A stretch of DNA of 63,968 nucleotides, filler included, from Gonapodya sp. JEL0774 (GCA_027604505.1; 5 parts of 5 records of this genome joined end to end with filler, not necessarily neighbours in it), one strand, 5' to 3'; counted from the first letter of the whole stretch, positions 13,241 through 52,901 are shown. Program-made: numbers and translations. Notes: generated from the sequence alone by a model not told the origin.

Positions 13241-13340
13241 NNNNNNNNNNNNNNNNNNNNNNNNNNNNNNNNNNNNNNNNNNNNTTAATTAATTAANNNN
13301 NNNNNNNNNNNNNNNNNNNNNNNNNNNNNNNNNNNNNNNN
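13241..13340. other. Artificial contig spacer (44 N + TTAATTAATTAA + 44 N)
   Basis: The 12-mer places stops in all six frames inside N runs. Genes on both sides are truncated. Confidence 0.97.
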
Positions 13341-13430
13341 ACGACAGGGCCTCAACTCCTTCCGCGGCTTCTCCTCCAAAGTCGCTGCCGAAATCTCCCG
13401 TCTCACGGGTTTCCCCTTCCTTCCCGCCCC

Positions 13431-13463
<33 letters not shown>

Positions 13464-14444
13464 GCTGGTCGAGGCCAGCGGGGCGTTGAACACGGTGGCG
13501 GTCAGTTTGTTCAAGATCGCCAACGATGTGAGACTGCTTGGGTCTGGACCCAGGTGTGGGTTGGGCGAGTTGAGCTTGCCAGAGAACGAGCCGGGGAGTT
13601 CCATCGTGAGTAAGGGGGGTGGGGAGGGAGAGAGGGGATGGTCTTTTGTTCTGATGATTTGGAGTGGCGGTGGTGGTGACACCTGTGCTCGTTACACACC
13701 CTCGTGATCCGGACCCCGCAACCCAACCACCGCCCCCCGTTTGTTGCACGTGCAGATGCCCGGGAAAGTCAACCCGACTCAGTCCGAGGCCATGACAATG
13801 GTGTGCGCGCAGGTTATGGGGAACAATAGTGAGTCGGCCGGCGCAATCCCGTCCGCTGTCCCCTCTCCATCCCCACACACCACCTTTCCCCTTTTCCCTT
13901 CCCCACCGCCCCCACCCCCCTCCTCCCAAAGCCGCCGTCACCGTCGCCGGCTCCTCGGGGCACTTTGAGCTGAACGTCTTCAAGCCCGTGATCATCCGCA
14001 ACGTTCTCCACTCTGTTCGCCTCCTGGCCGACGCGTGCGAGTCCTTCACCAACAACTGCGTGGTGGGGATCGTGGCCAACGAGAAGAGGATCGACCAGTT
14101 GTTGCACGAGAGTTTGATGCTGGTCACTGCGTTGAATCCGTATATTGGGTATGATAGTGAGTAGCGGGCGGCGGTGTGACTAGACCCCTGCGTGTGCGGG
14201 GCGTGGGGGGACAGATCTAAAGCACCAACCATCACCACACCCCTCTCCCCCCCGCCCCCCGCCAGAGGCTGCCAAAACCGCCAAAAAAGCCCACAAAGAA
14301 GGCACCACGCTCAAGGAAGCAGCCATCAGTCTGGGTTACCTGACCGAAGCCGAGTTCGCCGAGTGGGTCCGCCCAGAGAACATGATCGGGCCGAGGGAAC
14401 CGCCGCAGCCGGGGGAGTCGGTTAAGTTGGAGGCGGGGCACTGA
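13341..14444 (+). CDS. FUM1: Fumarate hydratase class II, C-terminal half (5' part missing), 4 exons
   Basis: [42 protein letters not shown] (fumarate lyase signature split by an intron), [24 protein letters not shown] and [15 protein letters not shown]. Confidence 0.97.
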
Positions 14445-26646: not shown

Positions 26647-28282
26647 CGCTGGAGAGCCACGGAGCACGCTTGTGCTCCGGAGTGACCCGCACTGGCCGCC
26701 CTCCGATACAGCTCAATAGCTCGCGTGAAATCGCGGGCGAATCCGGGAAATTGGGATCCTCGACGGTATTGCTCAGCAAGTTCAAATGTAGCGAGAGCTG
26801 ATCCTAGTCGCGCAGAGTCCCAGAGACAGTCCAGTGCGCGTAATTCGTTTGCCGGTTGTGATGCGAGACCGAAGCGATGGGCGAGGAAGAGGTTGAAAAG
26901 GTAAGTTGCAGCTTGGCTGAGCTGTGACAGCTTATTGTCGTTTACAGGTGGGCTGGAAGGGGACGGGGCCACTGTCGGCATTGGAGTTGGAGAGTAAGGA
27001 AGCGACTCGAGCTTTCGAGCAGTGTCCGGTTTCAGCACAGAGGACAAGTCAATCCCTCCAACGCCCCTGTTTATCTTCCCTGCCATGTCCGATTCGAGAG
27101 CTTTAAGAAGCCCCATAGCCAGCCGATTTCCCTCGGAGGCAGAAGGCTGCCACCACCGGACCGCATTCACAAGCTCGCCTTGGGCGACGCACCGACGGCC
27201 AAAGTCCACCATAGCATTACTAACGCGATCGAGAATTTGAGCGAAACTCGGTCTCTGAGCAGGATCTGGGTCCGTGCAGGCAAGGACTAACGCTGCGTAT
27301 TCGTCTTGTGGATTGAGGATCAGGGGTGCGACGGGTGGCATAGGAGGGATCGCGCGGGTGGCAATTTCCCAAAGAATGACGCCAAATGAATAAACATCAC
27401 ATTTGTGCGTGAAGGGCGAGCCCTGACGAAGTTCGGGGGCCATCCACAGTGGTGTGCCGACTTGTCCTATAGTCGCAAAGTCAGAGCGAAACTACGCGAA
27501 AATGGGTCCCATACGAGTTTCCATAGCAAGTGGAGACAAACTGATGCAACTCAAATTGAACTGCACAAACCTTCGCCAATCCAACATCGGCAATCTTCAT
27601 GGTCCCTGTCGAATCTAGGAGGAGGTTGTGAGATTTGAGGTCGCGGTGTTGAATGTTCTTGTCGTGGAGGAAGTGCATTCCAGAAGCGAACTGGAGAGTC
27701 CACTTCCAGCGGCTGTTGGGAGACGAGGTGTGAGGTTAAAGGTCCCCAAGCTTGCTACAACAACGGAGCGGCAAATTGATCGCGACGGAACCGAGCACAA
27801 ACATCCCGTGCCAAATCATTGTCTCCGTTGACGAGAGTATTGCTATTTGCCACAGTTTGGGTGAGAAGATAGTCCGGTCTGAGGGAGCGTGATGTCGAGT
27901 TGATCTGTACCAGAAGTGTTCCTCCGATCGTCTATTCCGGAGAGCTACCTCCCAAAATCAAAGACACTCACAGCATTGGAGAGATGGGCTTCGTTGCATC
28001 ATGCAAATAGTCAAACAAGGTCCCTCCGTCCATGAATTCCGTGACAATTCCGAACAAACTACCCTCCGCCAACACACCAACCATGCGGAGGACATATTTG
28101 TGAGAGAATATGAGCAAAATGGCCGCTTCCTTCAGTCCGTCATCAACGTTGGTTCCTTCCATTTTCTTGATCGCAACCCGTTCCCCGCGAAGAAGCCCTT
28201 CATAGACGACGGAGAATGTGCCTTTACCAAGCTGTCGGCCCCATTGTATTTCTGATGGGTTCACTCGTACTGAGATGGACAT
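26647..28282 (-). CDS. TKL-like protein kinase with C-terminal Sel1-like repeats (3' end cut at spacer)
   Basis: [25 protein letters not shown] (in place of DFG), GTPLWMAPE and DVYSFG. Sel1-like segments: [12 protein letters not shown]...[18 protein letters not shown] and [13 protein letters not shown]. Confidence 0.88.
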
Positions 28283-32494: not shown

Positions 32495-35400
32495 CTATCT
32501 GGAAGTGTACCTCACCGCCGCGATTGGAAACACTGCACTGGTCATGTACACAACGGTTTCTGAAAAGGTTAATTTGCTTTTGCTATTCGGTGCCTCCTTC
32601 TTTGTGACGCCATACACCGAGTCTTTACCATTCGGTGGCTGCAGTACGAAAATTTGAGGCGTAAGTTGTTGGGGCTCACAACCAAACCCGTGATATGGAA
32701 AACTTACCATTGACAGATTAGGCATATCCTGTTCAGCTCTATATGATTCACCCTGCCAGTAAATATGTCAGCATGCTGGGTGATGGCTACATAAATACAC
32801 GATTCAAACTCACAACCACAACCAAACAAAGAATCAGGGCATGGTCGCCCGCTTGGCTGGTATAGTTATGGGCATTAGATGAATCCTCGGCGGTGTAGAT
32901 ACCCATTCCGAATCTGAACGGGCAAGATTGTGGTCTCGTTCACTTGTGTGAACCACCACCAATACGGGTGATCAACTCACCTTCCCCACTTGATAGTGGT
33001 GGTGGGGACCGCCATAGAGAACCCGTTGCGGAGGATCCCACATGTCCGACATTCCTCATCTTTGATACAGGCAGGGATGCTACGTCCCACGGAGAGATCG
33101 GAAATCTTATAAAGTGCAGGATAGGGCTTTTGAACGAATGAGGGAAACTTCGCTGAATATCAAGCTCACACTGCAAGCTGCCGTGGTTCCATGCCATAAA
33201 AACTTCATCGCAGGCCACCTTTTCATGCGATTTTTGTTTGCAAGTGACTTTGCGTATTCCATTGTTTTGTCAAAGCGAGCGCGTCCAAGAGGTAGGGGGT
33301 TGAACAACATCCCACGGATGGTGAGATCTTCGAAGTTAGGTGCATTGTGCGTGTTATTCACCCATTTAGATTTGAGGTGGTCGAGGGCAAACGGAAGAAC
33401 ATAGGACCACGGGTTTACAATTTCCTCTCGTGATAAGACACAGTGCGCCCACAAGTCCGCTACGTCGAGAAGACTGGAGACTCCGGGAGGGGGTTCGAAC
33501 GCGAGAGAGGAACTCATCCAAACTCCGCGGGCATTTGATGTAGCGATTGTAAGAGGAAACGAGATGTCGTAGTTTCCAGGGAATTTCAATCGAGGAATGA
33601 GTGCTTCAAAAACAGCATCGTGTCCTCTGCTTCCGGATGATGAAGATGGGAGTCGCGCAAGAGGAGCAGAGAGAGCAACCCCCGAGTCAAGTTTCGAGAG
33701 TAGCTCAGGCCTGAGCGGTGGTTGCGTCGCTGGAAGTCGAGGCAAGTGCTTCTGGAGGTGCTCTACCGCAGCAGTAAAAGGTGGGCGGTTTTCAGGCGTC
33801 GCATCCCAGCATCGTTTCAGTAAATCTTTCATGTAATCAGGCATCAGCGGGATGGGGCGAACAGGTCTTTTTATGTCTGCAAAGCGGTCAATGTCAGGTC
33901 GCTCCCCGTCCTTGACTTTGTCCCCGAGTACATCTTCGTCGACATCTGGAAGTGGAATATCGAGGGTCCAGATCTCACAGCACGTCATTGCAAATGCGTA
34001 AACGTCAGTGCTCTTGCTGTTCTTTCCACCTTTCTGGAACAGCTCAGGCGCCTTCCACCGCTTAGTTCCCACATTGCCAGAGCTTCCTCCCAGACTTTGT
34101 GAACGCACGACATTGGACACTTTGGCAAACCCAAAGTCCGCAACGATACCTGTGCCCTGAGCATCGACTAGGACGTTATTCCCCTTGAGGTCACGGTGTA
34201 TAATGTCAAGACTGTGGAGGTATTCCATCCCTTTGGCAATGTCCAGTATCAGCATTGTCTTTTCGTACACCGAACCACCGTCGGGCTTTGCACCCAGATA
34301 CTTGATCACATGGCCGTGTTCCATAAACGGAGAAACCATGAATGGTTGCGGACAGGTAAGATTGGCGCCATAGAGGGGAAGGATGTTGGGATGGCGCAGG
34401 ATCCACCATACTTCGATCTCGTACTGAGCAGCTTTGATGGAGTTTTCGTTGAGCTCCTTGATACGGACACGCTTTACAGCGACAGTTGTGCCACCACGCC
34501 AGAGTCCGCGGAATACATCCCCATATGTTCCACCTCCAACCCACAGCTCGTTCTCTCTCCCCTCCTTCATGACTTTGGCAACAACTATATGACGCTCTTC
34601 GATGTACCAGTCCATACGGGTGGCCGGGTTGTCCGACCGCCTTTTGCATTCCTTCTGTACCTGAGTGAGAATCTGCTTTTCGCCTGGCGGGACATTGATG
34701 TCCTCCAAGCGGGTCTGGACAGCAAGTATCAACTGCAACAACTCTTTCTGGCTGCACTGCATGCGCTCAAGGCTCTCTGCAACATGACGTAGGCTCTCGT
34801 CGATGGCTCTCTGCGCGGTGCGTGCGTCTTCCTCGTTCTCGGCAGCCCACTTTTGGACATTCAGAATTGTTGCAAATTGAAAGTCGGAACACAGCTGCTC
34901 GAGCCTGGCGTCCAAATCGAGTATATCCTTCTTGATGGTAGCGTGGGAGATGACCTTGAGCTGGTTGCTCTTGCAACCAACACCTTGGAGGAAATTGGCT
35001 GTTTCGGTGAGAAAAGTCCGGAGTTGTTTCTCGTAAATACCAAGCGTGCCATGGAACCCTCTCTCCTGCTGCGCCCTCTCCTGTAGAGTACGGACAACGA
35101 GTGCGCAGCGATGAGCGAGGCGGTCTGCAAGTTCCTTGTTTTCCTTGAACCCTGCAGCCGAGTTAACAATTCCCCGGAGGTCGCTGTAGGCAGCTTCCAG
35201 ACCGGGAGCAGGCAAAGCATCCAAAATGGGTTCAATAGCCTCCAGGAGACTCTGGACCGATCCCGCTGAAGTGCCTTCGACTCTGCCTCTGAGAACGTTT
35301 GACCGTGCTTGCCTGTTTGCACAATACCCGCACATTCATAACAAGAAAGAGGTCAGAGCTACGGACACTAACCGCACGGAGCCTTGAGTGGTTCAGCTTG

Positions 35401-39932: not shown

Positions 39933-39995
39933 TTCTTTCAGGATGGGATTGGAAGATATAAAGGTCTGTACATAGAGTGGAGCGAAACTTCGAAG

Positions 39996-42900
39996 ATGGT
40001 CAGTGAGCTGTCAAGGTACTGGGATCTGGGATGGATCGCATTCCCCATCACGTTGAAGTGGAGCGTGGAGAAGGGAAAGAAGGAGCTGATGCCACCGAAG
40101 GACTGGTCAAAGCTGACGCTGGAGACTGCGCAGAGTGTGCCGGCACGAAATGCGATTGCGATCCAAACTGGTGCGGGATCAGGGATCGTCGTAGTTGATG
40201 TCGACGATGTGGAGGGGTGGCAAAAGATCCTGGGAGAGAAGGGGGAGACGGCGCCCGAGACAGTGACAGCCCGCTCGCAGCGCGGAGGGTACCATTATTA
40301 TTTTGAGTTTACGGAGGATATTGCGGACTTGAAGTCCACGTCTGCCTTACTTGGCGGGTGCGTGGATGTTCGGAACAAGGGAGGAATGATTATCGCGCCG
40401 CAAAGCGCGTTCCAAGTTCCTGGCGAAGCGACGCCACGGGAGTACAAGTGGCTTGAGGGGAAAGCGCCTTGGGAGCGAGGACTTTCTGACATGCCGGGCT
40501 GGTTGGTCAGGGCTCTTCGGGAGAGTGGTGGAGGAGGAGGTGTCATAAGAGGTCAGGGTGGACAACAGGGGGAGGAGGCCGTGAATACGCCTGATGCAGT
40601 GAAGGATTTTATCCTCCAAACCTTCACGATCATGCACGGAAGTGTAGGTGAGACGAAAAAACTCAGTGGGGATGCAGGGTATGTCATTGCGACGAGTGTT
40701 CTGGAGTGCCCTTTCAAGAAGGCGGCGCACAAGAGCAACCGGCAGTACCTGCACATAACGCAGGGCGGTGAGATAACGCGGCAGTGTCACGACGGGGAGT
40801 GTGCCAACAAAAGCTGGGGAACACGCAAGGTTCCATCCGAGATAGTCCAGACACTCACGGCGATGTTTCAGAATGGTGGGATAGAGGAGTGTGTGAAGAT
40901 CAACTGCGGAGAGGAGACGCCATCAGAGGTCAAGAACTTTATCACAAAGAACTTCGGGCTGGAAGAGGACACCCTTGGATGGACGAAGTTGGCTCCGAAC
41001 GGAACTGGGTATATCGTGATGACAAGCGTGCGTTATTGCCCCATTGCAAAGGACTCACACAAACAAGGCCAGCAATACCTTTTCGTGAGCGCTGGCGGAG
41101 AGATAACCCGCCGGTGCCATGATGTCGAGTGCAAGGAGAAGATAAAGCGCAGGAAGGGTGGGCGTTACCAAACGCCAGAGCCGGTGATGCAAGCGCTGAG
41201 GGCGCTATTCCCTCTGGACGCTTCAGAGGAGGATATGGATATTGGAACGCCTGTGGAAGGAATGGAAGTTAGGATGGAGGCGGAACTCATCGAGCAAGCG
41301 AGACAGGAGGCCGTGATGCTCGTGAATTCTCTACACAAGGGTAATGAGGAAATGGCAATGGTGCACAAGCCTGAAGAGCAGATATTTGAGGGTGTGATGG
41401 AGAAATACTACAAGAAGGACGCGAAATGTTGGTTGTGTGGGCATGGACGTCTTGTGGCCACGACGAGCAAGGATGGACTGGTGATTCAATGCACTGACTG
41501 TGAATACCGGTCGCCAGGACAAGGCGCGATGGTGGTTGAGACGGAGAAGTACAAGCACCTTGGGAAATACTTCGTGATGGTCGTGAACCAGTACAACCAG
41601 CAAATCAACGTGACGAATGTGACGGTTGCGGCGGAGCCAACAGCAACATGGATGGACTTCGCGAGCGAGGAGCATGTGTTTGTGCATGGAGACGAACGCC
41701 TCAACAAGTTGTTTCTGCATGCGCTGAGTGGAATCCACGAGTGGGTAGCTAAGCTTGTCGCCGAGCTTGTACCCATTGGAGTCGCATATGCAGACCGCGG
41801 GTGGTGGTGTTTCGAAGGACATCGTTGGATTGAAGCGAGCGAGAGTGAGGCTATTGAGAAGACGGTCGGAGCTCCAAAAGTATACCTTCTGTTTGAGGAG
41901 GCATACAAGCATTACAGTAGTGTGCAAAGTGAGCGTACAGATGCGGCGACAGCGCAGCGAGCAAAGTGGGTGAGAGACACGCTGACGCAGTTGGGCAAAA
42001 CTCCTTATCGCAAAAACGTCATGGATCAGCTGGAAGCGCAATACAGGAGGGTGGGACGCACGTTCGTGAAGGAGCGGGACGACAGGGATGAGCTCCTTGC
42101 CTTTGAGAACGGAGTCGTTGATTTGGACAAATTAGTCGATGGGGATGAAGATTATTTTCGAGAGGGTCGCGCAGAGGACTATGTGACACTGAGTACCGAC
42201 TATGACTTCGACCGCAAAGCAGTGGACAACCCCGATGCGCGAAAGGTGGTGATGGACGTCTTGGAGAAGATTCTACCGGACCAAGCAACGCGCGATTATC
42301 TGCTGACATACATGTCAACAATGTTGAGTGGATCCGCACGTGAGCAAAAGCTGGTGTTCTTTACAGGCGACGGTGCGAATGGGAAGTCATTGATTGCAAA
42401 CGCGCTGAAAGCGGTTTTGGGCCGCTATGCGCAGACAATCAAGAGTTCTATCTTGATGGAAAACCGCAATGGCCCGCGTGATGGAGAAGCACCTACTCCA
42501 ACGTTGGCAGGACTTCGCACGGCACGATGCGTTATCGTGAGCGAAGTTGGTGCCGGCGCACGATTGGACGAGGAGATGTGCAAGTCGCTCACGGGTGATG
42601 AGGATATTGCTGCTCGCGGGCTTCACTCAAAAAAGACAGAATTTCGCTTTCGCGGCAAAATGTTGCTCCTGGTCAACGATCTACCGAATATGAAGGCAAC
42701 TGGGGAATCAGCATTTGCTATGCGCCGGCGTGTGCGGGTGGTAAGAGGACAGAGCACTTTTGTGGAGGATCGGGCACCGGATCCACAGAACCACGTTTAC
42801 GTCGCAGACAAGACGTTGGGGGCAAAGGTGAAGCTGTCATGGTTTAAAATGGCACTGCTTGGTATTCTCTTTGAGAGGTACAAGGCATACAGGGCAGAAG

Positions 42901-43247
42901 GGACAATCAAAGAGCCGGTGGCGGTTCGAGACGCGACGGGTGACTACCTGAGCGACAGCAATCCTGTCAAAGCGTTCTTTGATGACGCGACTGTTCCCAC
43001 AAATGCGGGCGGGACAAAGTCCTCGGTGGTCTTCGACGCATTTCGTCAATGGGTTACTACAAATGCGCCAGAACATACGGCAGCGGTCAGAATGTGGAGT
43101 TTGACGAAGTTTTCACGGAACCTGCCAGAGCCTCTCAAGAGCGAAGTGTTGAACGTGGATGGGAAGTGCGAGCGGGGAATCAGGGTGAGGCTGAAAAGAA
43201 AAATAGGAGTAGATTACACTTTGAAGGCAAAAGATTACACTTCTTAA
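39996..43247 (+). CDS. Prim-Pol (bifunctional primase-polymerase) + 2x UL52-like Zn finger + D5-like SF3 helicase, intronless 1083 aa
   Basis: Prim-Pol motifs: IAIQTG..SGIVVVDVDD, TARSQRGGYHYYF and VDVRNKGGMIIAP. D5_N: WWCFEGHRW and LLAFENGVVDL. Walker A FTGDGANGKS, Walker B CVIVSE, motif C LLVNDLP, Arg finger RRRV. Confidence 0.93.
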   Translation: MVSELSRYWDLGWIAFPITLKWSVEKGKKELMPPKDWSKLTLETAQSVPARNAIAIQTGAGSGIVVVDVDDVEGWQKILGEKGETAPETVTARSQRGGYHYYFEFTEDIADLKSTSALLGGCVDVRNKGGMIIAPQSAFQVPGEATPREYKWLEGKAPWERGLSDMPGWLVRALRESGGGGGVIRGQGGQQGEEAVNTPDAVKDFILQTFTIMHGSVGETKKLSGDAGYVIATSVLECPFKKAAHKSNRQYLHITQGGEITRQCHDGECANKSWGTRKVPSEIVQTLTAMFQNGGIEECVKINCGEETPSEVKNFITKNFGLEEDTLGWTKLAPNGTGYIVMTSVRYCPIAKDSHKQGQQYLFVSAGGEITRRCHDVECKEKIKRRKGGRYQTPEPVMQALRALFPLDASEEDMDIGTPVEGMEVRMEAELIEQARQEAVMLVNSLHKGNEEMAMVHKPEEQIFEGVMEKYYKKDAKCWLCGHGRLVATTSKDGLVIQCTDCEYRSPGQGAMVVETEKYKHLGKYFVMVVNQYNQQINVTNVTVAAEPTATWMDFASEEHVFVHGDERLNKLFLHALSGIHEWVAKLVAELVPIGVAYADRGWWCFEGHRWIEASESEAIEKTVGAPKVYLLFEEAYKHYSSVQSERTDAATAQRAKWVRDTLTQLGKTPYRKNVMDQLEAQYRRVGRTFVKERDDRDELLAFENGVVDLDKLVDGDEDYFREGRAEDYVTLSTDYDFDRKAVDNPDARKVVMDVLEKILPDQATRDYLLTYMSTMLSGSAREQKLVFFTGDGANGKSLIANALKAVLGRYAQTIKSSILMENRNGPRDGEAPTPTLAGLRTARCVIVSEVGAGARLDEEMCKSLTGDEDIAARGLHSKKTEFRFRGKMLLLVNDLPNMKATGESAFAMRRRVRVVRGQSTFVEDRAPDPQNHVYVADKTLGAKVKLSWFKMALLGILFERYKAYRAEGTIKEPVAVRDATGDYLSDSNPVKAFFDDATVPTNAGGTKSSVVFDAFRQWVTTNAPEHTAAVRMWSLTKFSRNLPEPLKSEVLNVDGKCERGIRVRLKRKIGVDYTLKAKDYTS

Positions 43248-43497
43248 CGTGAAGGCCTGACAAGAGATTACACTTTGGTACTGATAACATTACACTTCTT
43301 AGCAGCAACATATAGCTAGAGTACACTTAGTACACTTTTTCCCAGACTTTCTTCTACTACAACAAAACAAGCATCAGCTATGTACAGTAGATATAGTGTA
43401 TATATAGAGAGAGAAGGGTGGAGAATAAGAGTACTAAGTGTAATTCCAATGGTGAGACCTGCTAAGAAGTGTAATGTTATCAGTACCAAAGTGTAAT
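43212..43497. repeat. Iteron-like array with perfect 39-bp inverted repeat (putative replication origin)
   Basis: Six TACACTT copies on the left (in units at 43212, 43233, 43266, 43288, 43321, 43330). Three inverted AAGTGTAAT copies on the right (43436, 43467, 43489). 43267-43305 is the exact reverse complement of 43459-43497. Inner 12-bp IR at 43322-43333/43431-43442. Confidence 0.85.
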
Positions 43498-43835
43498 AGA
43501 GACGCTCCAAACTGTAGTTTCTACGACCCAAAGTATAATGGAGGTTCATTGACGTCCAATTCAATTTCGTTGAGACGGGCTTCACTGGAGGTCGTAGGTG
43601 GACTGACGGATGGACAAATGTGGATCGTTCGACCAAGTCCGAGGGATGATAAAAGGCCCCTGCAACCCAGAGTCCAACGAGTGATTCTTGACTCGAGATG
43701 GAGTTCTTGAATCTTTTTTGTATGGGATGGGATGGATTGGCTGGGTTGCACGTCATGGCAATTGGCATGAGATAAAATGGTATGTGATGTGGTGGGATGG
43801 AGAAGGGATCTTTCTGAAACTTTTCAAAAACCTGA

Positions 43836-44005
43836 TCCGGGATGGGGATGGGGAATGTGATTTGGAAACTCTTCGAAAATCAATTCAGGATGGGATGGGG
43901 ATGGGAATGGGGATGGGAATGGGGATGGGGAGATGGGGAGATGGGGAGATGGGGATGATGGGGATGATGGGGATGGGGATGGGGACGGGGATGGGATGAG
44001 GATGG
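43836..44005 (+). repeat. (GGGGAT/GGGATG)n G-rich simple repeat, G-quadruplex-capable
   Basis: Many runs of 3-4 G separated by AT/AAT/AGAT, lying between the putative origin and the second helicase gene. Confidence 0.85.
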
Positions 44006-44068
44006 AATGATTGCACGAAGACTTAAAGTCCCCATTTTTTTCCCCCCTGACATCCTACCTGAACCCTG

Positions 44069-46435
44069 ATGGAAAACCATCATGCAAAGCGTCGCTCCAC
44101 ATCACCAACAATCGAGAGTGATCTATATCTCGCAAAGCGCCGCCTCACGACTGCCCCTCAGGCCAGCCAGTCGAAGTTGTATCCTGCAGAGTTGATCAGG
44201 ACCATTGACGCTGGTATCGTTGAAGCTCAGCCGATTCTCAACAGAGCACTCAAAGTGCCCGTCGGAACAGAGTGGCAAGTGGGTGGTGACACCAATCTCA
44301 TCCCAAGGTGTGTCATGTGTCTTGTGGATCCGAAACACGCACATCAAGATACTGGCGACAGTTTCCTGCGTGTCAACTTGGACATGACAGTCGACGCGGT
44401 GTGTCGAGAGCTTGGAGAACGTCGCCTTCGCGGACCAGTTGCACGAACAGTGCAGGCAGCATTCAATATTAAGGTTCCCATCCACCATGGAACTAAGGAA
44501 TATGAGGGTCTTCGTGACCAAGTCGTTTCATACGCACTGTCACGGGGCTTGCAACGCGAAACAGGATCAGGTTGGGTGTACAAACCAATCAATGGCTTGA
44601 GCTATGCACTCGAACGATGGAAATCCCCTGAGGCGTATCTAAACATAGTGTTCAGAGATGATGACACTCGCACACTGTCGAAGCGGGGACACTACTTCGA
44701 CAACTTGGTCAGCTACCTCTGCAAGGTAGATGACGAGTGTTTTCACTTCGTAGTACGAAACATGAGGTACTACGGTTTCCGAAATGGCGTTTACGACCTG
44801 GAGGCGTGCGAGTTCATACCCGGTTCAGATGTTCCTTCGAATCTTGTTGCTCGAAAATACATCGATCAAGAGTTCACTGGAAGCACAGAAACGCCCTTAT
44901 TTGACAGTATCTTCCGCGATCAAGGGCACAGTGATGAAGTGCTTCGATTTGTGGATGTGTGCCTAGGTCGATTGTTTGGTATCCGTGACGACTGGCAGTT
45001 TATGCTGATGTTGTACGGAGAGTCTGGTACCGGGAAGTCCACGGTGCTGTCTGTGATGCGGAGCTTTTTCGAACAAGTTGGCTCTCTGTCAAGCACGTTT
45101 GAACGCACGTTTGGACTGTCGGCGTGGTACGACAAGGAGATAGTAATGGGTGACGATCTGCCACTGAACATGGCACAAGTGCTCCCTCAGACGGTCATTC
45201 AGACGATGATCTCCAACGGCGAGCTCACAGTCGTGCCAAAGGGCAAGACGGCGTTCAGCGTGAAGTGGAAAGTTCCGTTACTGTTCGCGACAAACTTCGC
45301 ACTCGACTACATTGATCAGGGTCAAGTGTCGCGGCGTGTGCTTGTCCTTTCGTTTTTGGAGAGGGTGCGTGTTGTAGCGCCAGACCTGGTATCAAGAATC
45401 GTGAGGGAGGAGCTTCCTGCTGTCCTAAAACGCGTGACAACAGCGTACAAGAAAGCACTGGAGTTGAATAGAGGTAGGGGAGTTTGGGATTTTACGCCAG
45501 CGTACTTCATCGAGGGGCAGCGGGAAATGCGAATGCAGAGTGACCCGGTATTTGCTTTCATCACGGAACACTGTGAATACCGGGAAGGCTCCCTGGTCAC
45601 CATCAAAACATTGAAGGAAGCTGTCAAGGATAAGACGGGAACGGTCCCTCCTTCGCGAATCAGCCATCTTACGGTGGAGAATGCTGATGAACGATATAAG
45701 ATTGTGAGGATCAAGTTGTGTAAGTCATGTGGGGGGGAGGCAAAGAAGGGGTGTTGCAGCGAATACAACCGTGCCCAGAGGACCAGTGCCGACGCAGTAG
45801 TGAACATGGCGCTTGACTGGTCCCCTGCACAAGCGGTGACTACCGCTATTGCACAGACGAGTGAATGCGCTGACTGGAGGGTGGAATATCGGACGAATGT
45901 ACTTGGTGGTGGTGGTGATGGTATGGTCGACGAGTCGATGGAGTGGATGAACCATGCGACGCCGTGCATTCTGGCCGGTGATGTGGCCGAGGCACAAGTC
46001 AAATTCTACTTGTGCGAAGGGGTAGAATTTGACTGGCGGCAACCAATCCGCCAGAACACGGAAGTGCCGCCACACACTCAGGCCGACATCCTGACATATT
46101 TCACGAAGCGGGAAGGCACGGTCAGAGCTGCGGTGCAGTTGATCAAGAAGGTGACGGGTGCAGAGCATTGGGAAGCGCCGACAGCCAACTTCCGAATGGT
46201 GACTGCGAAGCATGGAGAAGTTACAGGGCGTGTCGACTTCCATGGAAGAACTGGTGGAACGATGTACATCCTGGAGACTAAATTTTCTGGTAGTGATTTG
46301 GTTCCTGGCAACCGTCACTGTCGTCAAATGGAGATGTACTGGCGATGGGGTGTCTCACAACCTGGCGTGGAGAAATGCGAGATGATTTTCTACAACGTTC
46401 GAACGGGGGTATTAGAAATGGGTAGTTTTTCATAG
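44069..46435 (+). CDS. D5-like SF3 helicase fused to a Zn-ribbon and a C-terminal PD-(D/E)xK (RecB/Cas4-like) nuclease, intronless 788 aa
   Basis: YYGFRNGVYDL and TPLFDSIF. Walker A LYGESGTGKST, Walker B IVMGDD, motif C LFATN, SRRV. Zn-like CKSC...GCC. Nuclease motifs VTGRVD...YILETK...QMEMY. Confidence 0.88.
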   Translation: MENHHAKRRSTSPTIESDLYLAKRRLTTAPQASQSKLYPAELIRTIDAGIVEAQPILNRALKVPVGTEWQVGGDTNLIPRCVMCLVDPKHAHQDTGDSFLRVNLDMTVDAVCRELGERRLRGPVARTVQAAFNIKVPIHHGTKEYEGLRDQVVSYALSRGLQRETGSGWVYKPINGLSYALERWKSPEAYLNIVFRDDDTRTLSKRGHYFDNLVSYLCKVDDECFHFVVRNMRYYGFRNGVYDLEACEFIPGSDVPSNLVARKYIDQEFTGSTETPLFDSIFRDQGHSDEVLRFVDVCLGRLFGIRDDWQFMLMLYGESGTGKSTVLSVMRSFFEQVGSLSSTFERTFGLSAWYDKEIVMGDDLPLNMAQVLPQTVIQTMISNGELTVVPKGKTAFSVKWKVPLLFATNFALDYIDQGQVSRRVLVLSFLERVRVVAPDLVSRIVREELPAVLKRVTTAYKKALELNRGRGVWDFTPAYFIEGQREMRMQSDPVFAFITEHCEYREGSLVTIKTLKEAVKDKTGTVPPSRISHLTVENADERYKIVRIKLCKSCGGEAKKGCCSEYNRAQRTSADAVVNMALDWSPAQAVTTAIAQTSECADWRVEYRTNVLGGGGDGMVDESMEWMNHATPCILAGDVAEAQVKFYLCEGVEFDWRQPIRQNTEVPPHTQADILTYFTKREGTVRAAVQLIKKVTGAEHWEAPTANFRMVTAKHGEVTGRVDFHGRTGGTMYILETKFSGSDLVPGNRHCRQMEMYWRWGVSQPGVEKCEMIFYNVRTGVLEMGSFS

Positions 46436-46478
46436 CGTGAAGTCAAGGACCATATATTACAACTGAGACAATGAGTAA

Positions 46479-48092
46479 CTATGAGTTTGTGTAAGTGTTT
46501 CTTTCAGTACCAACCCATTTCCAACCTGGGAGGTTTTTGCCTTCCATCAAGATGTATTCTTGTCGGACATTGGAATTCCTCAACACCATGACGCTCAGTA
46601 GATTCCAAAACTCGTCCATTTGCTTCTGAGAAGATCCAACATACACCATCCCAGAACGCAACACACAAGGTGGAAGAAGTGATGGTTCGTCGTCGGGTAA
46701 AGTAGCGATGAGGTCTTCGCGGATTTGCGCCTGGCTGAAAGGTTCGTTTCGTAAGCGAAGATAGTTCCACACGCGGACGGCGACATTGGATGCGAGCTGT
46801 TTGAGCACATTGCGACGCTCAAGTTCGCGACGAGCAAAGAAGAAAGTTATGAAGAGAGCGACAGTTGGGAGGAGGATGTTGGTGAGAAACCGACGAAGGG
46901 AAAAGGACCAAGGACGAATGGGAGTGAGATAAGTAGATATGGGATGGTCAGGGTGGTGAGAGTGGATGGTGAGGCTGTCGGCGAAAGGGAAGTTGTCGTC
47001 GCAAATGTTGTTGAGGATGATGTCGACGGCGATGTTCCAGATGGCGATAAACTCCCTTTCAGACAACTCTGATTTGGCCATGACAATCTCTCTGACATGG
47101 GAGAGGGGCACGCCCAAGACTTTGGATTTGCGTAGTGAGACGCGTCCAGCGACTTGCACCCACGACTCCACAGTGACCTCGACGACGGGGGAGCCGTAAC
47201 CGAGCGTGTTCCTGAGAGTGTCGACCATAATGCGACCAAGAGCGTAGAGGGCTTCGTCGCGAGAATGGGTGAGGGGATCGGAGATGCAAGCAGGGGAGAG
47301 GGACATGAAGGAACGAGAGAGGAGGAAGCCAGGAAGGCAGGCGGAAATGCGACCATTTTCGCAAATGGCGTGCGGAGGGCAGTGAGGAGGGGAGATAGAG
47401 TGGATGAGGAGAGATGCGAGGAGGACGGTGACGAAGACCATGGAGGGTGCCTGCCAGAAGCCGAGTATAGAGGGGACGGGTGATTTTCCGTCTGTCGCCT
47501 GACCAGTTGTCGACGGTACCGAGACGTGTGGAGGGGGTGCATCTGCATATGTAGGAAGACCAGGTGTCGACGGTGCCGAGTGTAGAACAAACGCGCTATC
47601 TGGGATAACTATAGGCTTGGGCATATTGGAACGACGTTTGCCAGGTATTTTAGGGCTTTAACGAAGAATCAAAGTATTTTTGAGCGTTGACGAGATAGTG
47701 TACAGAAGCGTGTTTTGAACTCACACATAGGCTGTCGGGGACTGTGGTGGTGTTGGAGGATATCTCGCTGGCCTTGGTAAGAATGGTGGATGGTTGATAT
47801 AAGAGTGAAGATGAATGTACGTGATGGTGTTTCTCTCTCACCTTGGGAAGGCTGGTTGTGTGAGATCGATGTTTGTCGACAATGGGAAAAAGCACGGCGT
47901 GACATGCTTTTTCCACAACTGTATACATTCCTCGGGAGACTTGTGTCTAATATCCAGTTGCGGCTTGGCGATAGAGATTAGGTGTTTGAGATCTTCTGAT
48001 GACAGTTTCTGAGGGTTGAAGTTAATATGCTGGTATTGATTGGACAACCATCCGTCATGGGGGGTGCGATCGGGGAAGATGACGTAGGGCAT
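46479..48092 (-). CDS. LEM/HeH + Man1-Src1 C-terminal (MSC) inner nuclear membrane protein (Heh1/Src1/Man1-like), 3 exons
   Basis: Exon 1 NFNPQKLSSEDLKHLI...ECIQLWKKHVTP resembles HeH. Two GT-AG introns splice in frame into MPKP... The MSC-like part has TM, CPPHAICENG...CLPGF...CISDP, a second TM, FSQAQIREDL, W...V..NSNVR and WKWVG. Confidence 0.75.
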
Positions 48093-48160
48093 ATGATGAA
48101 TCGTGATAATCAATGGATAGGAGTTTATATAGGCAATTGGGGAATCGTATCCGGTGGGGC

Positions 48161-48223
48161 GTAGAACTTGCCGGAATCAAAAAAAAAAATTAAAATTAAA
48201 AAAAAAATGCGGTCTGCAACGAC
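48161..48223 (-). promoter_or_regulatory. Conserved upstream motif copy 1 (AGAACT.GCCGGAATC-polyA-GCGGT.TGCAACGAC on +)
   Basis: Near-identical to 49650-49709. Lies just upstream of a TATA-like TATATAAA (48124-48131, minus strand) of the LEM gene. Confidence 0.5.
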
Positions 48224-48240
48224 TAAGTCTCGTCCTGGAT

Positions 48241-48381
48241 GGGGATGGGGATGAGGATGAGGATGGGATCTGACATTCTGAAACTTTTCGAAGTGTCGTC
48301 CGGGATTGGGATGAGGATGAGGATTGGATTCGACATTCTGAAACTTTTCGAAATGTTATCCGGGATGGGGATGAGGATGAG
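48241..48381 (+). repeat. 60-bp tandem repeat (about 2.3 copies): GGGATGAGGATGAGGAT..GACATTCTGAAACTTTTCGAA
   Basis: Units at 48241-48300, 48301-48360 and a partial 48361-48381. A related unit lies at about 43812-43900. Confidence 0.85.
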
Positions 48382-48480
48382 AACGGGCCTAGACACATCA
48401 TTGATCGTTCTTTACGATCACGACTGTATTTAGAGTACATCCAACAGCAAGAAACTACAAGTTTCACGTGTTCACTTCCG

Positions 48481-49481
48481 CTATAATCTTCTGCTGCTCC
48501 TGGCTGGTCCCCCTCCTCCCCTCCTGACATCTCTTTCCTTCTTCCCCCGACGCCCCCCTGGCCTCGGTTTCTTTACCCCGGTCGACATGGGTGTGGCTCG
48601 TATCGAGGAGTGTGCCGAGGCTAAAACCGAATCGTTGTCAGAGTCGGATATGTGATCAGACTCTAGGGCATCGGTTGCCACGGGATGGAGTTGAGCGATG
48701 AGATCCCTGATATGGTGCTCTTTCTGCAAGATATCTTGATGTGCCGAATTGAGGTCTTGTAGTAACGATTTCTGTGTGTCTTCCAGGTGCAAGACTTGAT
48801 TGTTGGCGCGATCGAGATTGTCTCTGAGATCGGAGATTGTTTGTTTGAGGTGCTTAATTTGACGTTCAAGAAACGCGGTCTGGAAGAAGAGATGGAGTGG
48901 TGTTAGAAGACTGCAATAAAGAAAGAATCTTCAGATGCACTTACAGTATTGAAGTTGGCATTATCTAGAGGGTGACTGGTAGTTAATTCATCGTCGACAT
49001 TCCTAGAAGGATCTCCATACTTAGGAGAGAGCGCATGTGAGTCAAGAGAAGAGAATGAGCAAAGAGATGTACGTACGACATTATAACTCTTGAGACAGCT
49101 TATGGCCATGACCTTGTACGAACTATCCGACTGAGCCTTCTCAAAGATATGCCTCACGGCATCACCGCGTCTATCAAAAGTGTCCCGGAATTCGGGCGTC
49201 AAGAAGTGCTGCTTCAATGTCTCGAGTGTGAGAGATGACATTCCCCAGTAGATGTACAAAAGGTCGTTGTCGTGTGTGAGGAAGAATCGATTCGTGATCC
49301 CACGGTCAGGAACAGACCAAGTAAAATTGTAGACGATGTCGAAGGGGAGAGTATCATCGTAGAACTGTTCAACCGAGAGAAGTACAACGTGTGCAAGTAG
49401 TTTCAAGTAGTTGCGGAAGTAGAGATTGAGAGTCTCCCGTTTAATGTGGTGGCGCCAAGTCTCGTTTTCGTTTTCTGCCAT
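48481..49481 (-). CDS. Unknown protein, 'YWG' domain + coiled coil + basic tail (paralog A), spliced
   Basis: ORF 48903-49481 plus downstream coiled-coil exon(s) to 48481. Its N-domain aligns by eye with paralog B. Confidence 0.6.
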
Positions 49482-49649
49482 CTAAAGTTTGAAATGAAGA
49501 GGTCATGTGAGTGATAGGGCGGGCGTGATGAGAAGGTGAGAATCAACACGTACTACGATGAGAGTATGGTAAGATTCAATGTGACGGTAATGGAGAGAGA
49601 GTGAGCGTGAGCTTTATAATGGGTTTGGGTGTATGTGGCTGATGTGGCG

Positions 49650-49709
49650 CAGAACTCGCCGGAATCAAAAAAAATAGAAAAAAAAAAGGCCGTCGCGGTG
49701 TGCAACGAC
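49650..49709 (-). promoter_or_regulatory. Conserved upstream motif copy 2
   Basis: AGAACTCGCCGGAATCAAAAAAAA...GCGGTGTGCAACGAC, upstream of a TATA-like ATTATAAA (49613-49620, minus strand) of paralog A. Confidence 0.5.
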
Positions 49710-49966
49710 GACAACGAGCGTGGGCGGGATTGTAGGATTTTCCATCCCTGACAGAGTGAAGTGAATCAAATTTTGAAAGAGTGGTAATGAGCTTGTTCTC
49801 TGTTCAGTGAAGTAGGAGATAGAGGGGTAGACAGGGCAACGGTGTGTCGACGAGCAAGGAAACGAAGATAGTGATAGTCGGTTTTGGTAGGAACGACCGT
49901 GAACAAGATTTGAAAGAAGAGAATGGATTTTGATAGAGTATTACAGTAAATGATGAGCTATTTGCT

Positions 49967-52193
49967 TCACATTCCTTCGTATGACTTCCCGTCGAATGTC
50001 CTTTTTCTGTTGCCAACACGCCTGATGGGACCAGTGCCAACTTCACCTTGGGATTCAGGCACCACACTCAGCACTTCAGAAACCACCTCCTTCGGCGCCT
50101 TGTTCCTCACACGCCTGGCCTTTGGAATACCTTTACCCTTCTCCACGACTGCACCATTCTGTGCGGTTCGGGCACTCGAGGTCGCAAGCGCTACCAGAGC
50201 CCGCTCGGCTTTCGTCTTAGCTTGCCGTTTTAGTCGAACTGGTGTCACAACCGTGCTGACGGAGGAGGCTGAGCCATCGTCATCGGAGGCGGACTCACAA
50301 TCGGTATCTGGCTGAGTGTTTGGAATAAAGGTTGGCTCTGGAACAGGAGAAGGGGAGAGCTGACGTGGTTGGCGGAGGAGTTCTGGCTGCTTTTCCAAGG
50401 AAATAGGAGTACTAGGTGGTGATATGACGTCAAACTGAGATTGAGGGATACGGAGTGTGGTCACATCGAAGGTGTTCGAGCGACTCTTGGCTGCTTCCAA
50501 AAGCGCCTCTAGATTGGCGATCTGGGCGTCCCGCTGAGCTGCCATGCTCTGGAACTGCGAAAAGAGATGCTGAACTCCGCGCTCTCGCTCCGCGACCTCT
50601 TCACGGAGAGAATTGCATGTGTCTGATGCGTGCTGAAGCTGGGATTGTAAATCCGCGATCTGTTGACGCAGTTGTTGGGTGTTGTCCTCGATACGAGACT
50701 TTGCTTGGAGTTCGGTTCTCAGCGTGTGATTCTGACGAAAGACTTCTTCGACCTGTTCGAAGTTTGGATACTTAAAGAGTGAAGAGAGATGTAGGTAAGT
50801 GATTCTATGGGAGGGTGTTGCATGGAAGAAACCTAGCGTTTACACACCTGATTGATAGTGTTCCTGAGTTTCAGTATCTCGCGATCTTTGGAGGCAAGAT
50901 CTTGATGTAGACGAGCAATGATTTCCTCTTTGGAACGAGAAATCTGCAGGGATGAATAGGGGGGAGAAATGAGTTATAGATATGATGAAGATTCTGAGTC
51001 AACTCACCATGGCAATATCCTCTTTGTGCTGTTCACGCAGAGTATTGCATTGGTTGGCGTTGTGCAGCACCTGATCTCGTAAAGACGCGATCATTTTTTC
51101 CTGGCTAACGAGCATGTCCTTGTCGTGAGACCCTATTTGGCAGAGATTGTCGGTGAGATCCTGTATTTGATTGATGAGGTCTGCGACCAGAGCGTCCTTT
51201 GTCAACTGAAAGGGAGATCAGAGATGTAGGTAAGAGATGATGAGAGTGGGTGTCGCATGTGAGAACTCGATACACACCGAGTTAGTGGAAGCCTTGAGAT
51301 TCTGTATCTCTTCCTCTTTGTCGGCAAGGTTGCGGCGCAGCAAAGCAATGGTTTCGTCTTTACCGCGAGAAGAGCTCTGCAGGGATGAACGGTAGGGAGA
51401 AATTGAGTCAGAGATCTGAAAAGAAGTGCTGGTCAAACCGTAAGATGCAGAGTCGACTCACGTGAGTAAGCTGCTTCTCAAGTTCCTGGATTGTGCGATC
51501 TCTGCGCCCTACCCTTCCCTCGAGTTCTTTGACTTGACGAGCAAGTTCGGATGATGAGGTGTCCTGACTGGAATTTGGAGAGGACTCGAGAAATTTGTGG
51601 GTCATCTGAAAGGATAACAAGTGTATGAGAGATGAGAAGTACTGCGTACAATACGAGGGAGAATAGAGAACATACCCTGAGTTTCTCGTCCAAACGCTTC
51701 CGCATGTCAAGGTCGGCTTTGGCTTCTCTCCAAACGTAGTTCACAGCGGCCACCTTCGACATACGGGAGTAGGGTAGTGTCCGTCCAAGGACAGGTGGCA
51801 ACTCGTCAACGTTAATGCTGTACAGGCCCCAGTACAAGTAGATGTCTTGATTGTTTGATCCGAGGTTGAATTGAAAACCGTCCGAGTCTTTCACAGAGAG
51901 AGTAAGCCCGTCGAGGACTGGGACAGGTAGCTCGGACTGTCGAAAGCGAAGACAGAATGACTGGAAAGCTTTCTGCTTCGGGGAACAACGGCTAATTGAG
52001 GTTTTCAGGAACGAGGCAATAACCGGAATAGTCATGGAGTCGCAGTAGAGGCGAAGAGTGTCGTCGGTGACCCTGAGCAGAGACAGGCGATGCAAATGGG
52101 TGAGTGAGTGTAAGGATAACAATGCATACGGCTGCGTCATGTGGAAGGTACTCACATAAGGTTCAAGTATTTGGAGCTGTGTGACGACGACAT
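49967..52193 (-). CDS. Unknown protein, 'YWG' domain + repeated coiled-coil exons + basic tail (paralog B), multi-exon
   Basis: ATG 52193 MSSSHSSKYLNL splices in frame to VTDDTLRLYC...YLYWGLYS. Short coiled-coil exons lie at about 51470-51600, 51280-51380, 51010-51205 and 50850-50945. The final exon ends at 49967. Confidence 0.6.
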
Positions 52194-52442
52194 TACTTTG
52201 AATCTGAGTTGAGGGTGTGTGGGTGAGTGTGAGCATAGCGATATAAAAGGGCAGGAACATGTGGAAGGTACTCACATAGCTGGGTGATATGTAAGAGAGA
52301 GGAGAGATGATGAGACGGAATGGCAATGGATGGGTGAGGTAGAAGAGTGGTGCTTATAAGGGTATGAGAGATGGGGCACAGACCCGGCTGACAACGGGCT
52401 GGCCCCAAAAAAAAAAAAAAAAAAAGAAATGTTCCGGTAGTA

Positions 52443-52901
52443 ATGCCAAAGGAGCAAAAGAATGGGGAGTGGAGCTACAGTAAGGGAGGTCAGTGGGTTA
52501 AGATGGGGTGGCGGAGAAGAATGCAAAGTGAGCTGAATATGGTTTGTCGTGGGGCGTTGAAAGGAACAGAGATGTTGACTCAAACAATTTTTTTTTATGT
52601 AGGTGTAGAGGAAGTAACGAGAGAAGGAAATAACATCATGGAAGAGACAAAAGGAGAGAGTGTAGAGAAAGTTGTTAGTGTGTGGAAGAAGCAATGTGAG
52701 CATGGGAAGAGACTATCACGATGCAACCAGTGTCCAGGAGGGGGGCAAGAGCTGTGTGATCATGGGAGGCAAAGGCATACATGCCGTGTGAGCCCATGTG
52801 GAGGGAAGAGTACCATGTATTGCGAACATGGTAAGCACAAGACGAGGTGCATAGAGAAAGAGTGTGGAGGAGGAGGGTCATTGTGTGAACACGGGAAGAG
52901 A
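52443..52901 (+). CDS. CEHG-type Cys/His zinc-binding repeat protein (3' end cut at spacer)
   Basis: CEHGKRLSRCNQCPGGG, CDHGRQRHTCR..PCGG, CEHGKHKTRCIEKECGGGG and CEHGKR. The start may be the Met at 52638. Confidence 0.75.

Follow-up and report, generated by a model that had tools for sequence, protein, structure and literature searches.

A candidate virus-derived nuclear replicon with a primase-helicase, an iteron palindrome, and spliced cargo in the fungus Gonapodya sp. JEL0774

The window analyzed here is a stretch of 63,968 nucleotides from the aquatic, chytrid-type zoosporic fungus Gonapodya sp. JEL0774 (GCA_027604505.1) that consists of five contigs joined by N-spacers, and our subject is the fourth of them, a 12,969-bp contig (39933–52901; N-spacer on each side) that may represent a virus-derived nuclear replicon. 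It carries six genes, three of them spliced: two helicase open reading frames (ORF1 and ORF2) with an iteron palindrome between them, the spliced genes C, D, and E, and a truncated gene of giant-virus type at the right end. A first-pass annotation had described a contig devoid of housekeeping genes, with the ends of the element outside the window. No housekeeping gene was indeed seen, the coding regions and repeats leave no unexplained gap longer than about 820 bp, and both contig ends are broken, the right one within the giant-virus-type gene. All frames in the window are intact. The Pfam scan and the gene content revealed no capsid, packaging ATPase, polymerase B (PolB), or integrase inside this 13-kb contig with its broken ends; major capsid protein (MCP), PolB, A32 ATPase, and VLTF3 were likewise absent from it as linked core genes, and an Rfam scan gave no matches. 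The remaining four contigs carry ordinary spliced eukaryotic genes. Relatives outside the window are known as single proteins and as fetched related viral loci.

ORF1 and ORF2 are each a single open frame with intact Walker A, Walker B, motif C, and arginine-finger-type motifs, in agreement with the first-pass call of two intronless D5/superfamily 3 (SF3) helicase genes. ORF1 was matched above the Pfam cut-offs by Prim-Pol (E = 1.7e-16), D5_N (2.4e-11), and DUF5906/SF3 (1e-6). Its layout comprises Prim-Pol (DxD at residues 68–70), two tandem UL52-like zinc-knuckle repeats, a CxxC..CxxC zinc finger, D5_N, the SF3 helicase (Walker A at 791–798), and a C-terminal winged-helix-like tail. The features of a D5-like SF3 primase-helicase, namely archaeo-eukaryotic primase (AEP)/Prim-Pol, D5_N, and SF3 motifs, are thus present. 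Two further Pfam matches fall under the curated cut-off, Herpes_UL52 at the zinc knuckle (E = 0.004), which is internally duplicated relative to the paralogs, and Pox_D5 at the winged helix (E = 0.034); the winged helix is weakly supported by the latter and by the match to C962R of African swine fever virus, which reaches into the tail. The ORF1-family profile matches C962R (E = 6e-21) and poxvirus D5, and phage D5 genes are merely 23–29% identical. Quick trees, built without named Mycodnaviridae D5 rows, assigned ORF1 to the side of the D5 split that holds the eukaryotic viruses (99% by the Shimodaira–Hasegawa-like approximate likelihood ratio test, SH-aLRT), and in the second tree ORF1 and its paralogs were long branches outside a 68-row group of giant-virus D5 genes. 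ORF1 grouped with P0002–P0004 in the first tree and not in the second; P0014, P0027, and L090 were left out of the first tree because they had no anchor, and P0009 was probably mis-cut. The phylogeny of both helicases, proposed as a check by the first-pass annotation, upheld a placement on the virus side, and both fell on long branches outside the core groups sampled in these quick trees. A direct IMG/VR scan with the ORF1 family, which needs near-exact peptide words, returned no relative, and no inverted repeats flank ORF1 or ORF2 individually (scores 9–10). We rejected the public gene model P0001, which joins ORF1 and ORF2 via an 800-bp intron: both frames start and stop on their own, the paralog P0015 begins at the ORF2 start, and what the model takes for an intron consists of the palindrome and repeats.

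The inverted iteron array noted behind the primase-helicase in the first-pass annotation proved to be a palindrome with 39-bp perfect arms (43267–43305 and 43459–43497) that starts in the last codons of ORF1, which the first two iterons overlap. The iteron ATTACACTT is present on the plus strand in four exact and two one-mismatch copies (43213–43337) and in the inverted orientation in three exact copies and one with a single mismatch (43444–43539), and the center is moderately AT-rich (60–68%). The longest perfect inverted repeat within 500 nt is 39 bp here compared with 11–13 bp in the four other contigs, and the fold of the palindrome was unusually stable (z = −9.8; equally stable shuffles, 0/100). 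Origins of Staphylococcus aureus pathogenicity islands (SaPIs) are described as 6–12 iterons directly downstream of rep, opposed across an AT-rich center and bound by a winged helix (PMC9371898). The SaPI-type arrangement, with opposed iterons and an AT-rich center directly 3' of a helicase gene, is present here.

A similar gene-plus-palindrome layout was observed in viral relatives. Among the loci fetched with an ORF2 alignment, 13 close relatives having downstream DNA were counted, leaving out L087 and L091 (duplicates), L094 (no stop), L096, L104, and L106 (partial), and L011. A palindrome scoring at least 20 lies behind the stop in 11 of these 13, with a different iteron in each, compared with 1/237 other gene ends, 0/9 core-type viral branch loci, 0/6 loci of the Polinton-like virus (PLV) branch, and 2/75 ORF1-related viral D5 loci; p-values for these counts overstate independence because the cut-off was set post hoc and the loci are related. 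The six PLV-like branch loci scored 6–13, and two of them have less than 70 nt of downstream DNA. Some of the 13 loci are demonstrable giant-virus DNA, L001 by its giant-virus metagenome-assembled genome (GVMAG) name and L086 by its capping enzyme and minor-capsid domains, and several are short. In the literature, no paper was found that combined giant virus, iteron, and primase-helicase.

Several fetched loci are worth describing in their own right. The virophage locus L180 (Sputnik-type MCP), one of the two positives among the 75, has iteron palindromes at 2987–3334 and 8863–9376, with copies on both sides of its AEP-D5 gene, the palindrome recurring at a distance of 6 kb. In L102, a lone Prim-Pol/SF3 helicase gene (2611–5352) is enclosed by perfect inverted repeats of 224 bp that terminate on the inside in iteron triplets, and a second helicase (11468–13822) has 60-bp imperfect inverted repeats; no target-site duplication was seen by eye, and the arrangement resembles a one-gene mobile unit. 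In L082, two distinct stacked palindromes (4276–4675 and 4798–5676) stand behind the helicase, the second with the same iteron as L081 and L092; next comes a T5orf172-domain frame that ends in what looks like the tail of a helicase. Remnants of the 3' end of a second helicase just past the palindrome in L001 (11735–11962) and L084 (3168–3437) suggest cassette replacement. The hexamer CCAGAG/CTCTGG, a motif first picked by eye, occurs within 450 nt of the helicase stop in 7 of the 13 loci (L081, L082, L088, L089, L090, L093, and L095) against 0.74 expected, and the window has one, at 43667. Locus L107 (1–19664) contains MutS and a disrupted Prim-Pol helicase among many exact tandem duplications of 78–342 bp, representing either unusual DNA or an assembly artifact. 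In the giant-virus contig L001 (645–19270), genes of the peroxidase, multicopper oxidase, CAP-domain, and phytochrome-like histidine kinase types may be a hint that its host is a fungus or resembles one.

The contig is also one of a family. The search for other copies suggested by the first-pass annotation found related Prim-Pol helicases on four further contigs of the same assembly (7,260, 8,390, 10,375, and 11,292 bp), one with a three-gene order kept, so that at least five diverged ones are present in one assembly. On a 10,375-bp contig, the consecutive KAJ3335125/6/7 encode a primase-helicase, a helicase-nuclease, and an 85% identical MSC protein, that is, the order found at 39933–52901, P0039 being the 85% identical copy of gene C. 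A paralog of gene E (P0041) lies on a 4,367-bp contig, bringing the family members to six contigs in all. ORF2 is 78–100% identical to P0005 over residues 251–550, whereas its identity to P0015 is 82–96% over 1–150, 24–62% over 301–600, and 86–98% over 601–788; it is a mosaic with a helicase core like the first gene of the 10,375-bp copy and both ends like the second. The nuclease tail of ORF2 is also fused to P0002, an ORF1-type helicase. The alignments show that the copies have exchanged helicase cores. With five or more diverged Prim-Pol helicases and a three-gene order that recurs, a family of smaller elements is a simpler explanation than a large virus.

The strand composition of the contig is distinctive. 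The GC skew is positive in 25/25 bins of 500 nt, compared with 12/26, 17/26, 16/26, and 11/21 in the other contigs. At four-fold sites, counted on the coding strand, plus-strand genes have G319:C163 and minus-strand genes G110:C255 (Fisher p = 1e-25), whereas six host segments gave p = 0.15; the plus strand is G-rich at synonymous sites in either gene orientation. The bias is common to the viral-type and the spliced genes, which indicates that the cargo shares the replication history of the element, and we infer that the two sets of genes have been replicated together for a long time, with the direction unchanged. The skew keeps its sign at the palindrome. A bidirectional origin, which we also considered, is unsupported by this constant sign, and one-directional copying of a small replicon fits it.

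Table 1. Features of the contig (positions counted from the first letter of the window).
Feature	Position	Strand	Description and basis
ORF1	39996–43247	+	1083 aa, intronless; Pfam, family profile, motifs
Iteron palindrome, candidate origin	43213–43539		Opposed ATTACACTT copies; repeat search, fold test
G-rich GGATGG array with TCTGAAACTTTTCGAA-type motifs	43812–44009	+	Upstream of ORF2; repeat search
ORF2	44069–46435	+	788 aa, intronless; Pfam, motifs, low-confidence fold model
Gene C	46479–48092	−	491 aa; exons 48092–47842, 47772–47725, 47655–46479; Pfam, splicing, hydropathy
Promoter-like motif GATTCCGGCRAGTTCTRCGCC	48158–48178	−	Upstream of gene C, between poly-T tract and TATA box
60-bp tandem repeat	48236–48381	+	2.3 copies, GGATG/TCTGAAACTTTTCGAA family; repeat search
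Gene D	48481–49481	−	292 aa; exons 49481–49077, 49019–48945, 48879–48481; predicted 5' untranslated region (UTR) intron 49553–49482
Gene E	49967–52193	−	591 aa, seven exons; predicted 5' UTR intron 52275–52204
Truncated CEHG..CxxC zinc-finger repeat gene, giant-virus type	52638–52901	+	264 bp to contig end; IMG/VR matches

ORF2 has a DUF5906 match (3.3e-12) and no Prim-Pol domain in Pfam, and consists of an N-terminal Cys/His domain, an SF3 helicase (Walker A at 317–324), a Cys-rich tail, and a C-terminal predicted PD-(D/E)xK nuclease. The last 214 residues carry the nuclease motifs D723, E736-x-K738, and QxxxY (753–757). For a model of this tail of low confidence (mean predicted local distance difference test, pLDDT, 45.7), the top fold match was LHK exonuclease (Z 7.5, root-mean-square deviation [rmsd] 3.1, 91 aligned), and Hjc resolvases and lambda exonuclease were also matched; RecB-family matches among viral models were weak (E >= 0.008). 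With moderate confidence, the tail can be predicted to be a PD-(D/E)xK nuclease, and so the SF3 helicase half of the proposed helicase-nuclease is established, whereas its nuclease half comes from motifs and this low-confidence match (Z <= 7.5). In the quick tree, ORF2 fell in a 31-row clade with accessory Prim-Pol helicases and PLV-like helicases (96%), separate from an 11-row branch (98%), which we take to be the core viral helicase type. Its closest outside relatives are mostly on giant-virus-type contigs. Direct IMG/VR scans with ORF2 alone or with the nuclease alignment found no relative, within the near-exact peptide words that such scans need.

Ten coding introns (57–85 nt, GT-AG) restore the three minus-strand frames of the spliced cargo that the first-pass annotation had reported, and nine of them shift the frame or hold a stop, the exception being intron 1 of gene D. 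The product of gene C has an Src1/Heh1/MAN1-type MSC inner-nuclear-membrane domain (Pfam E = 2.4e-14) and two hydrophobic segments, the first of which is marginal (hydropathy 1.63). It had been called a nuclear-envelope LEM protein; the MSC domain was confirmed, whereas a LEM/HeH domain found no support in Pfam, the Protein Data Bank (PDB), or the Atlas, exon 1 having chance-level PDB matches only and Atlas scores below 0.9. The N-terminal HeH/LEM resemblance was judged by eye against a consensus. The direct IMG/VR scan with the MSC frame, of low sensitivity because it needs near-exact peptide words, gave no relative. Gene D encodes an orphan N-terminal domain common to gene E (E = 5e-6), a coiled coil, and a basic tail, and gene E encodes the same domain, a long coiled coil, a Ser/Pro-rich linker, and a basic tail. 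A low-confidence model of the shared domain is weakly SAP/HeH-like (PIAS1 SAP, Z 5.3, rmsd 2.9, 59 aligned), which we regard as a lead. The five downstream exon junctions of gene E agree with its public annotation (P0040), and P0041 shows the predicted first exon. A profile search of 1.84 billion representatives with the D/E domain gave two strong matches, P0040 and P0041, both from this assembly, and two marginal repeat matches; no credible relative outside this assembly was found there, and nothing in Pfam, the Atlas, or viral or PDB Foldseek searches. No relative of MSC, D, E, or the nuclease was found in 301 fetched loci (3.6 Mb) or in the low-sensitivity IMG/VR scans. The CEHG repeats at the right end are 52–57% identical (E about 1e-22) to repeat proteins in IMG/VR contigs, and by our reading of the printed tails these viral relatives appear usually to end in a PD-(D/E)xK-like endonuclease domain. 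This gene is of giant-virus type, so that virus-type genes stand on either side of the spliced cargo.

The repeat family attributed to the contig was confirmed as a GGATG/TCTGAAACTTTTCGAA family, which occurs before ORF2 and among the cargo, and a CAGGATGGGAT copy lies at the broken left end. The GGATGG array is the sole match to the G-quadruplex pattern in the contig; the pattern also occurs eight times in the four other contigs and is unremarkable alone. A second copy of GATTCCGGCRAGTTCTRCGCC (21 bp) lies upstream of gene D (49646–49666), giving two matches compared with 0/100 shuffles, and upstream of gene E the poly-T tract and TATA box recur with nothing more of the motif. On the neighboring contigs of the window, translations read by eye suggest a DOCK-like exchange factor (6985–13240, plus strand) and two protein kinases (26647–27491 and 33107–35335, minus strand).

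Taken together, these results lead us to favor, tentatively, a compact nuclear replicon that is capsid-less and plasmid- or satellite-like, derived from a virus, present in several diverged copies, and equipped with a SaPI-like origin. The first-pass proposal of a virus-derived element that has its own primase, helicase, and cis origin-like site and is expressed from the nucleus drew support from the syntenic diverged copies, from the strand bias common to both sets of genes, and from the gene-plus-palindrome layout in related viral helicases. By analogy with the SaPI PriRep protein, hexamers of ORF1 could bind the ATTACACTT iterons via the C-terminal winged helix, melt the center, unwind, and prime with Prim-Pol, with extension by host polymerases or by Prim-Pol itself. 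Copying may be one-directional or proceed by strand displacement, because the G bias shows no flip at the palindrome. ORF2, a primase-less helicase with a RecB/lambda-exonuclease-like nuclease by weak fold match, might process replication or recombination intermediates, which would also drive module swapping among copies. As a speculation from domain identity, the MSC protein C, perhaps with the coiled-coil basic D and E proteins, might tether the element to the inner nuclear membrane and so secure its inheritance through nuclear division. The more ambitious proposition of a new class, a fungal nuclear plasmid or capsid-less satellite with a giant-virus-derived primase-helicase, a SaPI-style origin, a recombination helicase-nuclease, and a spliced partition kit in which a captured inner-nuclear-membrane protein fastens the DNA to the nuclear envelope, is in our view unlikely.

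Several observations weigh against the replicon. The palindrome cut-off of 20 was picked after the scores had been seen, and the counted loci are kin. ORF2 has no palindrome of its own (score 9), and the 11/13 pattern was measured on ORF2 relatives, yet the palindrome follows ORF1. In view of the absent skew flip, the palindrome could be something other than the working origin, and a one-sided skew fits one arm of a large virus equally, L086 being positive in 12/13 bins. P0004 ends at the edge of its 11.3-kb contig, and the other contigs are visible as single proteins. The nuclease and SAP-like folds come from low-confidence models (Z < 8). Giant viruses have relatives of each gene that is not spliced, and accessory helicases with palindromes of this kind are found within them as well as in the virophage L180. 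Capsid or integrase genes may lie beyond the broken ends, and L001, a giant-virus locus of 21.5 kb whose helicase is related, also has no core gene among the ORFs scanned. The first-pass view that no capsid is present and no standard class fits holds for the absence of a capsid inside the contig, but this absence does not establish that no class fits: the ends are broken, the right one within a giant-virus-type gene, and L001 equally showed no core gene among its scanned ORFs.

The main alternative, doubtful but to be taken seriously, is that the contig belongs to a large DNA virus, latent or endogenous, which would be either a Mycodnaviridae-like nucleocytovirus or a nuclear mirusvirus-like one. 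The helicases would then be mobile cassettes of accessory type, the spliced genes would serve latency in the style of host genes, and the copies would stem from duplicated blocks or co-resident strains. Mirusviricota are marked by an HK97-fold capsid and herpes-like morphogenesis genes; none was found in the contig, the flanks of which lie beyond the broken ends. The tree positions of ORF1 with eukaryotic-virus D5 (99% SH-aLRT) and of ORF2 with accessory helicases from giant-virus-type contigs (96%) and the giant-virus-type gene at the right end speak for such a virus, as do giant-virus gene islands in Gonapodya prolifera (PMC5294986), MCP in two Monoblephidomycota genomes (PMC13533422), spliceosomal introns in 61/506 genes of a latent algal giant virus (10.64898/2026.10.09.758095), and the several copies of mobile, repeat-flanked accessory helicases held by entomopoxviruses (PMC11296320). 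On the other hand, splicing affects three of the six genes, which have ten coding introns between them and TATA promoters, whereas Mycodnaviridae contigs are partly defined by an intron density unlike that of the host (PMC13533422). The 13 kb contain no core gene, neither helicase nests in a core D5 clade sampled in the quick trees, and the number of diverged Prim-Pol helicases (five or more), the recurrence of a three-gene order, and the want of MSC, D, E, or nuclease relatives in the fetched loci and low-sensitivity scans also tell against a large virus.

An endogenous PLV or virophage-like element, with its capsid, ATPase, and integrase module past a broken end, appears improbable. The PLV-like contigs L097, L098, L100, and L103 carry helicases of the 31-row clade of ORF2 (A32 ATPase confirmed in L103), L180 has a D5 gene plus palindrome, and PLVs expand to many copies and exchange replicases (PMC12220804); against these points, 13 kb without a morphogenetic gene would be most of a typical PLV of 14–40 kb, the six PLV-branch loci have no palindrome within the downstream DNA available, and spliceosomal cargo in PLVs is unreported in the portions of the literature at hand. 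It is very improbable that mobile primase-helicase cassettes landed beside ordinary host genes C, D, and E without any larger element. The helicases look mobile elsewhere (the 224-bp inverted repeats of L102, the stacked palindromes of L082, and the helicase 3' remnants in L001, L082, and L084), MSC is a host domain, and the GC content is host-like, but the MSC gene stays beside the helicases in a second diverged copy, and the cargo has a strand bias absent from host genes, shares the repeat family found before ORF2, and is closed on its far side by a virus-type gene. Contigs from a contaminating or co-cultured organism are the least credible source, and contamination is unlikely because of the short fungal-type introns, the host-like GC, and the paralogs on five other contigs (six contigs with family members): GC is 50% and the CpG and TpA ratios agree with those of the other four contigs, although the tetranucleotide correlation is slightly lower (0.76–0.84 with the others, 0.83–0.92 among them).

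Few DNA replicons of fungal nuclei are known, the yeast 2-micron plasmid being the textbook case. If our favored reading is true, a multi-copy element with a bacterial-satellite-style origin in a eukaryotic nucleus and a nuclear-envelope protein would tie together nuclear plasmids, satellites, and the mobile helicases of giant viruses, and ORF1 with its 330-bp site would be a short testable pair and might serve as the starting point for a vector that replicates in zoosporic fungi. Were the contig instead part of a large virus, a viral segment this rich in introns and equipped with an MSC gene would reveal how a DNA virus latent in a fungus stays with the nucleus; dsDNA viruses of fungi have been described only recently (PMC13533422).

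Among known systems, Polintons/Mavericks have a protein-primed PolB and an rve integrase, neither of which is in the contig, the visible part of which would replicate by primase-helicase. Helitrons have an HUH Rep fused to a Pif1-type SF1 helicase (PMC11296320), whereas both helicases here are SF3 and the Pfam scan found no HUH domain. PLVs and virophages with AEP-SF3 replicases share the related helicase clade, mosaic replicases, multi-copy endogenous families, and, in one virophage locus, the palindrome, but the 13-kb contig differs from them in its spliced cargo and in the absence of capsid, ATPase, protease, and tyrosine recombinase genes; for one PLV helicase, remote homologs in chytrids have been noted (PMC11296320). 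Mycodnaviridae and other giant endogenous viral elements share the zoosporic fungal host group, D5-like helicase-primase genes, and nuclear integration (PMC13533422), whereas the contig is intron-rich, without MCP, PolB, A32, or VLTF3, and has helicases outside the sampled core D5 clades, among which no named Mycodnaviridae D5 was sampled. Gene C resembles Src1/Heh1/MAN1 proteins in its MSC domain and two hydrophobic segments, and differs in being divergent, with an unconfirmed LEM/HeH domain, and duplicated with a replication module; literature listings gave no report of an MSC-type inner-nuclear-membrane gene in a mobile element. The mobile accessory D5-like primase-helicases of nucleocytoviruses and PLVs are alike in being non-core, in several copies, associated with repeats and nucleases, and subject to domain exchange (PMC11296320). 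The difference here lies in the tandem pair, in a PD-(D/E)xK domain that is fused where theirs is a free T5orf172, and in the spliced genes that accompany the module; the word iteron is absent from the searched passages of that paper. SaPIs and related phage-inducible chromosomal islands (PICIs), with PriRep5 or Pri plus Rep and an ori, share the fused primase-SF3 helicase, the C-terminal winged helix, and the short opposed iterons downstream (PMC9371898). They are bacterial islands with an integrase and phage interference genes, whereas here we found a fungal contig with spliceosomal introns, a eukaryotic nuclear setting, eukaryotic-virus D5 kinship, 9-nt iterons with 39-bp perfect arms, a second helicase-nuclease, spliced cargo, and no integrase seen. 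The literature searched offers precedents for the replication module, namely SaPI PriRep plus ori and the mobile accessory D5-like helicases, but no multi-copy fungal family was found there in which such a module is combined with tandem helicases, a fused nuclease, and nuclear-envelope cargo rich in introns.

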